The notes under the pieces: generated by a model | What the model saw: only the letters and a program-made list of their open reading frames with translations | Told to the model about the DNA's origin: nothing | Databases searched by the model: none | Shown here: positions 59,868 to 61,337 of the stretch, in pieces | Position numbering within the stretch: the first letter of the stretch is position 1 | Layout: every line of letters begins with the position of its first letter | Origin: an uncultured Nitrososphaeria archaeon | GTDB lineage: Archaea > Thermoproteota > Nitrososphaeria > Geothermarchaeales > JDFR-13 | Assembly (NCBI GenBank): GCA_964437705.1 | Contig: CAYTHX010000002.1 | Coordinates: 16,916 to 80,915 of the forward strand | Direction: 5' to 3' | DNA length: 64,000 bases | Made by a program: the position numbers and the translations under genes

Positions 59868-59940
59868 TGGGTTTTTATAAAGGATTTAGGGACGCAAAGT
59901 TTATGTCTGAGGGACGCTGTCCAGAGGGTTTATAAAGCTA
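59868..59940 (+). promoter_or_regulatory. two TTTATAAA TATA-box-like elements
   Basis: tttttataaagg (59871-59882) and gtttataaagc (59927-59937), each preceded by G-rich BRE-like sequence, upstream of the GC-rich structured island. Confidence 0.3.
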
Positions 59941-60027
59941 ATATTTTATGGATGAGTCTGCCTAACCTCTGCTGGGCGTGGCGAGGAAATCGCGTAGTCA
60001 CGCTCAGTATGTTAGGTAGATGATTTT

Positions 60028-60223
60028 GCCCCTCATGTTGATCAGGTGGTCACGTGAGGGGAACTCACCCAGCCCCTCATAATCAGGTGGTTATGAGAGG
60101 TTTGGGTGGGGGGTTGGTTGGGGGATATAGCCCTTTGGGATGAAGCCTACATCAATCAGGCGGTTGATGTAGGTAGACTCACCCTACGCCCCTACAATCA
60201 GGTGGTTGCAGAGGCGTAGGGCG
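60028..60223 (+). repeat. four tandem imperfect hairpin repeats sharing the loop AATCAGG(T/C)GGTT
   Basis: Hairpins at 60028-60061, 60073-60100, 60146-60173 (perfect 10-bp stem CCTACATCAA/TTGATGTAGG) and 60187-60223. The linkers ACTCACCC (60063, 60177) and GGGTGGGG (60104) could pair with each other. Confidence 0.6.
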
Positions 60224-60375
60224 GGAGTCAACATACAGAGTACAAGGAGCAGAGTGTTAAAGTACAGAGTGTAGGAGTATGTGTCCCCCTCTCCAGACTA
60301 GATTTTGGGGGTAAAACCCCACCCTCCCAAAACTACGAGGGAGTGGGAGGGTAATTTCGGTCTGAGGGGAGAGGT

Positions 60376-60954
60376 ATGAGAAAAGCTCGAACAATTGAGG
60401 AATATCAGAAAGCACTAGAACTCCTCTATAAGTATAAATATAGTATACGGAAAGTGGCAAGAGAATTAAATATCCCGAGAACAACAATTCAACGTTGGCT
60501 CAAAGGTTCCAAACCAATACTATCATGGACACCAAAGCCAACACCAGAATTAGCATATGTAATTGGTGTATTGATGGGAGATGGACATTTACATCTACGT
60601 AAGAAAAACCACTATAGTATTGAACTAGAAGTTAAAGATTTAGCGTTTGCCTGTGAATTTAGTAGAACATTAGCAAAAGTACTCAATAAGCCATTTAGAA
60701 AACCATATTGGAGAAAAGATAGACATAGATGGACAGTATACTACTACTCGAAAGCATTCTACATATGGTTTAAGGAGCAAACCCTGAAAACATTAAAGAA
60801 GTATATAGAGCACGATAAAGAAACTGTTGGAGCATTCCTAAGAGGAATCTATGACTCAGAAGGAAGTAACTGGAGATGCAAAAGGATATCGGTATACAAT
60901 ACTAGTTTAATGCTTCTAAGGTATATCCAGTACCTATTAAATAAGGTATTTTAA
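60376..60954 (+). CDS. HTH + LAGLIDADG homing-endonuclease-like protein (I-DmoI-like), apparently truncated by a frameshift
   Basis: N-terminal HTH (RKVARELNIPRTTIQRWLKG), a first LAGLIDADG motif (LAYVIGVLMGDGHL) and a second (FLRGIYDSEGS). Confidence 0.65.
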   Translation: MRKARTIEEYQKALELLYKYKYSIRKVARELNIPRTTIQRWLKGSKPILSWTPKPTPELAYVIGVLMGDGHLHLRKKNHYSIELEVKDLAFACEFSRTLAKVLNKPFRKPYWRKDRHRWTVYYYSKAFYIWFKEQTLKTLKKYIEHDKETVGAFLRGIYDSEGSNWRCKRISVYNTSLMLLRYIQYLLNKVF

Positions 60955-61156
60955 TATTATTGCAAGAGGCCCATATGTGACAACTAGAGCAGGACAAAAA
61001 CGTATATGGAAAAACACGGTGTTTACAACGAGAAAAAACTGCTATACAATAGTAATCCGCAGAGGATTCTTCGTATACAAATTCCTAAAGGAAATAGGAT
61101 TCAGTATACCAAGAAAACAGCTAGGACTAAAGAAAATTAGAGACCTCTTGGGATAA
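60941..61156 (+). pseudogene. displaced C-terminal segment of the LAGLIDADG gene in the +1 frame
   Basis: In the other frame the reading continues IRYFNIIARGPYVTT...YTIVIRRGFFVYKFLKEIGFSIPRKQLGLKKIRDLLG to the TAA at 61154-61156. The segment is collinear with the I-DmoI C-terminal subdomain. Confidence 0.45.
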
Positions 61157-61207
61157 CCCCCCACCAACCCCCTTTTTCTCACACAGAAACAAAAAAATTT
61201 TTAACCC

Positions 61208-61224
61208 CCCCATATATAAGTAAT
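61208..61224 (+). promoter_or_regulatory. tRNA promoter TATA box
   Basis: catatataagtaat is centred about 25 nt upstream of the tRNA 5' end. Confidence 0.4.
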
Positions 61225-61236
61225 ATATACGGGTAG

Positions 61237-61337
61237 AGCCGGGTCGTCTAGCGGCCAAGGATCCCAGGCTCTGGATCGCCCCGTAAGGGGCTAGGGGAGC
61301 CCTGGGGACCCAGGTTCGAATCCTGGCCCGGCTACCA
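61237..61337 (+). tRNA. tRNA-Gln (anticodon CUG) with a ~25-nt intron after position 37 and encoded CCA
   Basis: Hand-folded cloverleaf. Acceptor AGCCGGG/CCCGGCU (A1-U72), discriminator A, CCA at 61335-61337. D-arm GUCU/GGAU. Anticodon stem CCAGG/CCUGG with loop CUCUGG and CTG at 61271-61273. Intron about 61275-61299, containing a CCCC-GUAA-GGGG hairpin. T-arm CCAGG-UUCGAAU-CCUGG. Confidence 0.75.

Follow-up and report, generated by a model that had tools for sequence, protein, structure and literature searches.

A frameshifted endonuclease gene beside a tRNA gene in a Nitrososphaeria archaeon: a young pseudogene and probably a decaying homing element

The stretch of DNA analysed here, referred to as the window, comprises 64,000 nucleotides (nt) of contig CAYTHX010000002.1 (assembly GCA_964437705.1, positions 16,916 to 80,915) from an uncultured Nitrososphaeria archaeon. 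At 60376-61156 it carries a free-standing gene of the LAGLIDADG endonuclease type with an N-terminal helix-turn-helix (HTH), the reading frame of which is broken by a single inserted base. The locus is a young pseudogene, and the species still has an intact allele in circulation at this position. The gene probably represents a homing element that targets the flanks of tRNA genes for insertion, here in a state of decay. All features of the window described below lie on its forward (+) strand.

The frame-0 part of the gene (60376..60954) encodes 192 amino acids (aa), from an ATG start to a TAA stop at 60952-60954, and comprises the HTH (about residues 7-43), a linker, the first LAGLIDADG domain and the beginning of the second. 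Motif 1, LAYVIGVLMGDG, occupies residues 59-70 and includes the acid D69, and motif 2 is FLRGIYDSEGS, in which FLRGIYDSEG spans residues 154-163 and includes E162. A continuation in the +1 frame (60941..61156) provides 71 codons and a TAA at 61154-61156, and encodes the remainder of the second domain together with a conserved C-terminal IGFSIxRKQ motif. Pfam searches with the 192-aa product returned HTH_23 (E 3e-6, residues 12-43) and LAGLIDADG_3 (E 6.5e-11), confirming the open reading frame (ORF) with two LAGLIDADG motifs and an N-terminal HTH that had been described in the initial annotation of this DNA. Joining the two pieces into a 259-aa protein lengthened the second LAGLIDADG_3 match from profile positions 2-45 to 2-82 of 82 and raised its score from 42.8 to 50 bits; the 71-aa downstream fragment alone gave zero matches in a Pfam search.

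A protein search with the joined sequence yielded 15 relatives (P0002-P0016) of 242-326 aa, with 44-55% identity and 90-98% query coverage. The alignment with homologues of about 260 aa continues across the junction, where the consensus is YLLKKYFNIxATGPYL. Since the window sequence aligns with them there (YLL-K-K-Y-F-N-I-x-A-T-G-P-Y), the downstream frame is the true continuation of the gene, as the initial annotation had supposed. These homologues do not end at the position equivalent to 60954, the outcome that had been named as contrary to that supposition, but run through the junction. An intact member of 259 aa, P0024, was found in the window protein's own 90% cluster, in agreement with the predicted full length of about 260 aa, and the +1-frame segment is identical to its residues 193-259. 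The P0024 gene is carried by the 45-kb contig L004, in which the genes follow one another as in the window, namely Flavin_Reduct, a structured island, the endonuclease gene, the tRNA gene and polyprenyl synthase. In a pairwise alignment the two DNAs were 99% identical over 1.75 kb, and within the gene they differed by three substitutions and one extra T.

The lesion is this single inserted T at 60942, located from the L004 alignment and from a variant table of nine alleles. It changes TTAAAAAGG to TTAAATAAGG, precedes the stop by 10 nt and lies about 10 nt upstream of the TTTT run in which the break had originally been placed; the ancestral residues 189-191 are accordingly K-R-Y and not N-K-V. 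The nine copies of the locus in the table (the window, L001-L005, L097, L098 and L099) can be grouped under the labels A, B′ and B. The extra T is present in haplotype A (the window, L001, L002, L003 and L097) and in haplotype B′ (L098 and L099), which has all other gene variants as in the intact allele, and it is absent from haplotype B (L004 and L005). The T-bearing copies vary among themselves at 60104, 60196, 60497 and elsewhere, so they are separate sequences and not a single artefact repeated. One of them, L097, carries a second lesion on the frameshifted haplotype, G60497A, which turns TGG (Trp41, kept in 64 of 66 relatives) into TAG, and because of this stop its gene was called as a 126-aa fragment. 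The series from intact through frameshifted to frameshifted plus nonsense indicates loss of function and not a programmed shift.

Decay of a homing endonuclease was one of three options that the initial annotation had left for the broken frame, and it is the one favored by the intact allele differing in one base, the W41 stop and the single ORFs of the homologues. A sequencing or assembly error in a gene that is really intact is scarcely credible. Single-base indels are the commonest assembly error, but the extra T is present in the window and six other assemblies produced by three different pipelines, at least four distinct haplotypes carry it, two further assemblies lack it and, being a T within an A-run, it is not an error of homopolymer length. 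The remaining option, a programmed or tolerated +1 frameshift in which tRNA-Phe would slip from UUU to the overlapping UUU and continue with AAU AUU to give the full-length enzyme, is quite improbable. The ingredients of a prfB-type +1 site are a slippery P-site codon, an A-site stop and an upstream Shine-Dalgarno-like sequence. In the window, GUA UUU UAA U provides a re-pairable P-site codon followed by an A-site stop, and 2 nt before it lies a Shine-Dalgarno-like AAGG in a purine run (UAAGGUAUUUUAAU), an arrangement known from the prfB site of E. coli; moreover, the frameshifted allele is the commoner one and most of its copies show no additional damage. However, the site is not conserved among the homologues, all of which, as far as examined, are single ORFs that need no shift, and the same species holds an intact allele that differs by exactly one base. 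The slippery run is ancestral coding sequence (TAT TTT AAT) in which the stop was created by the recent 1-nt insertion, so the site is accidental, and on one frameshifted haplotype the W41 stop lies upstream of it. Less probably, prfB-like +1 slippage occurring by accident at UUU-UAA may keep the window copy partly alive.

The protein encoded by the intact gene resembles I-DmoI. An AlphaFold2 model of the conceptually repaired protein, built from an alignment of 21 sequences, reached a predicted local distance difference test (pLDDT) value of 92 and a predicted template-modelling (pTM) score of 0.81. It comprises a three-helix HTH (residues 7-42), a linker of lower confidence and two alpha/beta LAGLIDADG domains, which are predicted to have the alpha-beta-beta-alpha-beta-beta-alpha topology and to form a DNA-binding saddle. 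In a Foldseek search of the PDB, chains of I-DmoI ranked at the top (E 5e-8, probability 1.0, TM score 0.70 normalised to the target), followed by PI-PfuI, the N-terminal domain of WhiA, I-SceI and I-Tsp061I. A sequence search against solved structures returned I-DmoI chains as the sole significant matches (best E 0.004, residues 60-190). As in I-DmoI, other monomeric archaeal enzymes and intein domains such as PI-PfuI, two helices in one chain end in Asp and Glu about 95 residues apart; D69 and E162 are separated by 93 residues, compared with 96 for the matching D21 and E117 of I-DmoI, so the I-DmoI-like spacing noted at the outset holds. In contrast to I-DmoI, with which it shares about 18-20% identity, the window protein adds the N-terminal HTH and a conserved W/P-rich linker, and its gene lies outside any rRNA intron or intein and has its own putative promoter, its own leader and a likely terminator. 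The window copy differs from a functional two-motif monomeric enzyme in lacking an uninterrupted frame. Its product is truncated at residue 192 and about half of the second domain is gone; judged from the model, the loss of the last strands and helices of this domain makes the 192-aa product unlikely to fold as a nuclease.

The family to which the gene belongs is large, mostly archaeal and composed of free-standing HTH-LAGLIDADG genes. A profile search of 1.84 billion cluster representatives returned 8269 relatives at E<=1e-3, 2504 at <=1e-10 and 338 at <=1e-30. The best 150 were mostly 240-320 aa long and spanned the HTH and both domains, and the matches at E<=1e-30 were mostly single and full-length. 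Among 66 representatives with 28-48% identity to the window protein, D69 was conserved in all 66 and position 162 was acidic in all 66 (E in 56, D in 10). Some genomes hold several paralogues, and the gene contexts differ among homologues. For the single pair measured, the P0002 and P0004 ORFs, the ratio of nonsynonymous to synonymous substitutions (dN/dS) was 0.165 at dS 0.94, which indicates purifying selection. NCBIfam contained no model for the family; the matches it gave, to intein segments of archaeal proteins of replication and translation (RNR, PolD, RFC and IF2), all fell far below threshold. Viral contigs held just seven distant matches, confined to the LAGLIDADG core, and PADLOC found no membership in a defence system. 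In the literature searched, there was no description of a family combining the N-terminal HTH, a structured leader and trailer and a position beside tRNA genes. The window species was absent from the matches of the species-representative genome scan.

One further member may also be decaying. In contig L092 (P0009), the conserved start context GGTATG is altered at about 850-875; the frame is open upstream and encodes the family N-terminus KGYRDYTYEDYKKAM, with no in-frame start codon in the roughly 45 nt examined. P0009 was called from an internal Met.

Evidence of movement came from comparison of the locus with those of relatives and from pairs of family members in single genomes. In a relative whose polyprenyl synthase is 61% identical (L094), the polyprenyl synthase, the orthologous tRNA-Gln and Lactamase_B are present without the endonuclease unit, and a more distant relative (L095/L096) likewise lacks it. 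Since L094 keeps the tRNA-Gln without the unit, the tRNA is the resident and the unit the newcomer. A metagenome scan with the neighbouring polyprenyl synthase returned a single known contig and no new empty site; the one in L094 was reached by searching proteins and inspecting their contigs. The tRNA-Gln(CTG) of L094 (6936-7047) was seen to carry, beside the anticodon-loop intron, an extra 19-nt insertion in the D-loop region that is likely a second intron, and aragorn mislabels this gene as tRNA-Pro.

Spread to new sites and replacement at old ones were seen in three pairs of loci. The P0002 and P0004 loci (L086 and L089/L090) are about 80% identical in nucleotide sequence over 1356 nt. This stretch takes in the ORF with about 380 nt before its ATG and about 135 nt after it, and ends at the 3′ end of an opposite-strand tRNA gene, which is tRNA-Phe at one locus and tRNA-Ala at the other. 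In the Thermococcus metagenome-assembled genome (MAG) JALSNG01, loci L020 and L027 have common flanks but differ in the intact family gene between them; the two genes encode proteins with 46% aa identity and are oppositely oriented. One flank is 100% identical over 124 nt, and on the other side the tRNA-Met together with its upstream region is 99.6% identical over 231 nt. Identity resumes at the tRNA 3′ end, and the swapped segment of about 0.9-1.0 kb consists of the endonuclease gene alone. In MAG CAKZUF01, the units of L011 and L022 are 79% identical, with 100% identity over the last approximately 140 nt (trailer and tRNA-Cys). These patterns agree with the unit having been replaced more than once at a set point next to a tRNA gene. 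The unit is thus present in some relatives and absent from others and has spread to new sites, presumably by homing.

The P0002 and P0004 genes were located about 8 kb apart in the same orientation on one contig (JGI 3300022470, Ga0190367_1000509). The roughly 7 kb between them hold the tRNA-Phe and an Eco57I-type N6 methyltransferase/restriction gene, and a DUF87/TrwB-like ATPase gene lies just outside, upstream of P0002. The L086 and L089 contigs have a GC content of about 35%, like the window, come from the same samples and may belong to the same organism.

The neighbour of the window gene is a resident tRNA-Gln(CTG) gene at 61237..61337, which follows the stop codon after 80 nt, contains a 25-nt intron and encodes its CCA. 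Its presence, noted in the initial annotation, was established by aragorn with introns allowed (61237-61337) and by Rfam (43.6 bits at 61237-61334, permissive filter). Both default ARAGORN and a whole-window Rfam search at the gathering threshold missed it. With introns allowed, aragorn found it as the single tRNA gene in the entire 64 kb. That standard scans miss such a gene calls for caution in the automated annotation of this genome.

A family-wide link to tRNA genes, which had not been anticipated, emerged from a survey of 47 loci in species-representative genomes (L006-L052). With adjacency defined as a distance of up to 450 nt, a tRNA gene was found downstream in 22 of the 47 loci, in 20 cases on the opposite strand, and upstream in two. 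If a chance rate of 1.2% per locus is assumed, derived from about 46 tRNA genes per 1.7 Mb, the binomial probability of this is about 6e-30. An adjacent tRNA gene was also present in all five metagenomic contexts examined (window/L004, L086, L090, L091 and L092). The neighbouring tRNAs include those for Pro, Asn, Ala, Ser, Met, Cys, Arg, Gly, Thr, Ile, Phe, Trp and Gln; the gene usually stands tail to tail with the tRNA 3′ end, and the positions are not orthologous. The search for intact copies and their insertion contexts in related genomes, which the initial annotation had recommended, thus yielded the intact alleles L004 and L005, variable contexts and this link. A second family copy was noticed in L025 (2508-3160), outside the locus scan; it ends at an opposite-strand tRNA-Pro.

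No other ORF of substance is present in the unit of about 1.3 kb to which the gene belongs. This unit consists of a putative promoter, a structured leader of about 430 nt, the ORF and a C-rich trailer with a T-run. A putative archaeal promoter, TTTATAAAG, was read from the sequence at 59929-59937 and is followed at 59949-59956 by a conserved putative RNA-start motif, TGGATGAG. A TATA-like box followed by TGGATGA(A/G) also precedes the homologous genes in L086, L089, L091 and L007. The TTTATAAAG box occurs twice, 55 nt apart (59874-59882 and 59929-59937), and GTCTGAGGG is found both near the start codon (60355-60368) and upstream of the leader (59900-59913); these doubled elements may reflect a partial duplication of the promoter or of the leader end.

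The leader (59949..60375) has a GC content of 53%, compared with 34.6% for the window, and a predicted RNA fold of -206.7 kcal/mol (z = -9.4 vs shuffles). Its gene-proximal part is conserved at the nucleotide level with the leaders of 55%-identical homologues; Rfam had no family matching the leader, and its best return was a chance match to SgrS (E 0.84). Since the window shares the promoter box, the proximal leader, the C-rich/T5/CACACA trailer and an AT box with the paralogue units, the structured island that the initial annotation had reported near the gene is real, and its identity is that of the endonuclease mRNA leader. Four hairpins with the loop ATCAGGYGGT (60041-60050, 60082-60091, 60155-60164 and 60197-60206; four matches vs 0.09 expected) have variable stems and conserved loops. 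CAGGTGKT loops also occur in the leaders of the distant members L091 and L010, at 0.33/kb in leaders vs 0.023/kb elsewhere. The AGGUGGU loop resembles a Shine-Dalgarno sequence and could be a protein-binding or ribosome-standby site.

The proximal leader (60288..60378) was examined in its minimum free energy structure. An outer stem pairs CCTCTCCAGAC (60288-60298) with GTCT..GGAGAGG (60360-60374), covers the Shine-Dalgarno-like GGAGAGGT and encloses two hairpins, P1 (GGGGGTAAAACCCC, 60307-60320) and the 9-bp P2, formed by ACCCTCCCA (60321-60329) and TGGGAGGGT (60344-60352). Pairing in P2 is maintained in L086 and L089 through C-G to U-A and A-U to G-C changes. In both the window and L086, an upstream complement pairs with the Shine-Dalgarno-like sequence and the start codon; the pairing is clearer in L086, where GAGGAGGGGGTATGG is sequestered by a perfect 15-nt complement. 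The outer stems of the two are analogous and cannot be aligned column for column, and clean compensatory changes were found in P2 only. The leader probably hides the ribosome-binding site, restrains translation and keeps expression low.

The trailer (61153..61186) consists of a C-rich arm that overlaps the stop codon (61153-61172), followed by T5 and CACACA (61173-61186); it is likely a terminator and is conserved in homologous units. The C-rich arm pairs with a G-rich helix arm in the leader (60109..60128). The two form an inverted repeat (I1) of 20 nt with 90% complementarity (18/20) and arms 1024 nt apart, so that the helix brackets the entire ORF. L086/L089 (16/16) and L091 retain the leader-trailer complementarity with different sequences, giving three sequence versions that stay complementary; duplex energies computed across loci as a control had little discriminating power, as all arms are G- or C-rich. 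The helix is similar to rRNA processing stems and to the stems that close archaeal introns containing an ORF; no bulge-helix-bulge splice motif was recognisable in it by eye. Between P0002 and P0004, the leader is 84% identical over 391 nt and the trailer 77% over 125 nt. As this is above synonymous sites, the non-coding parts appear constrained; gene conversion between the two copies could be an alternative cause. Between the trailer and the tRNA lies an AT box, ATATATAAGTAATATATA (61212..61229), and near-identical boxes abut the tRNA in L086, L089 and L092; it could be the TATA box of the tRNA-Gln or the end of the unit.

Several side observations concern the leader island. In seven of eight other assemblies, contigs from both sides stop within it (59923-60200), the contigs concerned being L001-L003, L005, L097-L099 and L101-L107, and in one sample two such contigs overlap by 140 nt (assembled at k = 141). 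The haplotypes differ in the island by several small indels, and it appears to be a hot spot of microdiversity. The leader segment 60064-60077 is 86% complementary over 14 nt to the tRNA-Gln intron (61286-61299), which is probably a chance match in G/C-rich RNA.

Archaeal LAGLIDADG enzymes are known from rRNA introns and inteins, and in the homing-cycle model a nuclease gene degenerates after fixation. According to the preferred explanation, a decaying homing element, the intact protein would be a site-specific DNA endonuclease with target recognition extended by the HTH. It would cut unit-free alleles in or beside the tRNA gene, and recombinational repair would copy the unit in, by intronless homing. 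The target may be placed at the tRNA gene from the position of the family members and from the swap boundary at the tRNA 3′ end. After fixation in the population the nuclease would lose selection and decay, which would be the state of the window copy.

Genes standing directly beside a conserved host gene, outside any intron or intein, have precedents in two homing systems. T4 SegB is a free-standing GIY-YIG homing endonuclease in a tRNA cluster, with a 27-bp site that contains the tRNA TpsiC motif (PMC2330249). It shares with the window family a free-standing gene among or beside tRNA genes and sets a precedent for tRNA homing targets, although SegB is phage-borne and of the GIY-YIG type, whereas the window family is chromosomal and archaeal and would only presumably target tRNA genes. 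The yeast WHO elements encode a LAGLIDADG-type nuclease with an extra DNA-binding domain, home beside FBA1, the gene they cut, and replace its 3′ end, and their site shows repeated homing, allele replacement and pseudogenes (PMC7282813). Like WHO and HO, the window gene is a free-standing LAGLIDADG-type gene with an added DNA-binding domain that adjoins a conserved host gene. WHO and HO differ in being eukaryotic and retaining remnants of an intein, with a C-terminal zinc finger and the protein-coding target FBA1, where the window family has an N-terminal HTH and a tRNA neighbour.

Two other readings of the locus were weighed. The initial annotation had offered a domesticated regulator, and a WhiA-like protein whose target is the adjacent tRNA gene or its own leader, perhaps even in the truncated form of HTH plus first domain, would account for the systematic proximity to tRNA genes, the purifying selection on paralogues and the CAGGTGG motifs repeated upstream of the gene. 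WhiA is itself a domesticated LAGLIDADG-plus-HTH regulator that has lost its catalytic acids, and its two-domain scaffold with an HTH is matched weakly by the joined protein in Pfam (E 4e-4) as well as in fold. Nevertheless, this reading is unlikely, since the HTH is N-terminal here and C-terminal in WhiA, both acids are invariant in the 66 representatives, and WhiA is a conserved single-copy gene whereas the window family is patchy, occurs as several paralogues per genome, lacks conserved synteny, is absent from related genomes, stands beside tRNAs of more than 12 identities and includes copies with frameshift, nonsense and possible start-codon lesions. It is highly unlikely that the gene is a border gene left over from an integrase-type element integrated into the tRNA gene. 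Archaeal plasmids and viruses usually integrate at tRNA genes, and the DUF87/TrwB-like ATPase and Eco57I-type methyltransferase flanked by P0002 and P0004 would suit such an element. Against this, neither an integrase nor any other cargo is present in the window between the chromosomal genes on either side, the unit is not bordered by direct repeats derived from a tRNA (att), and the segment swapped between L020 and L027 contains the endonuclease gene alone. At eight other loci checked on the far side, housekeeping or unknown genes and zero integrases were found, with genes identified in five of the eight (TIM, RidA, the tRNA-binding protein tRNA_bind, 2-hydroxyacid dehydrogenase and aEF-2). 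The earlier suggestion of a mobile-element remnant therefore stands as a small solo endonuclease unit beside a resident tRNA and falls as a piece of an integrase-type island.

Several points weigh against the explanation as a decaying homing element. Nuclease activity, the cleavage site and homing of family members are deduced, the target from position only, and the purifying selection on paralogues (dN/dS 0.17) would also be compatible with a host function. The empty site comes from a relative with just 61% identity in the neighbouring protein, and no unit-free allele was found within the window species among contigs with the flavin-reductase gene, seven of eight of which stop inside the island. 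The tRNA of the window is on the same strand, with its 5′ side towards the gene, which is the minority arrangement. As to decay, the frameshifted allele dominates the assemblies (7/9) and six of those seven are without further lesion, the haplotypes are separated by three substitutions only, and a single extra stop codon documents further damage. In addition, the shift created a slippery UUU-UAA, from which some full-length protein could still arise.

The intact, frameshifted and frameshift-plus-nonsense alleles in one natural population represent decay caught in progress, and the frameshift alone is nothing unusual in the life history of a selfish endonuclease gene. The family is more important than the frameshift, being abundant, unnamed and free-standing, with an added HTH and a systematic tRNA position. 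A broader interpretation, which we put forward only tentatively and hold to be somewhat doubtful, is that it constitutes an undescribed class of archaeal mobile elements, in which a unit of about 1.3 kb would home into the flank of tRNA genes, usually at the 3′ end, with the tRNA gene as target and different lineages competing for the site; the covarying leader-trailer helix would close its mRNA in the manner of archaeal introns that carry an ORF, and this RNA may undergo processing or circularisation. A leader that masks the ribosome-binding site would offer a testable case of selfish-gene expression control in hyperthermophiles. If tRNA genes are the targets, such units would be a second route, besides integrases, by which archaeal tRNA loci become hot spots of genome change, and would bear on proposals that see tRNA introns and split tRNA genes as protection from elements of this kind. 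The family would, if this is true, also supply thermostable nucleases that have long target sites and an additional, modular DNA-binding domain.

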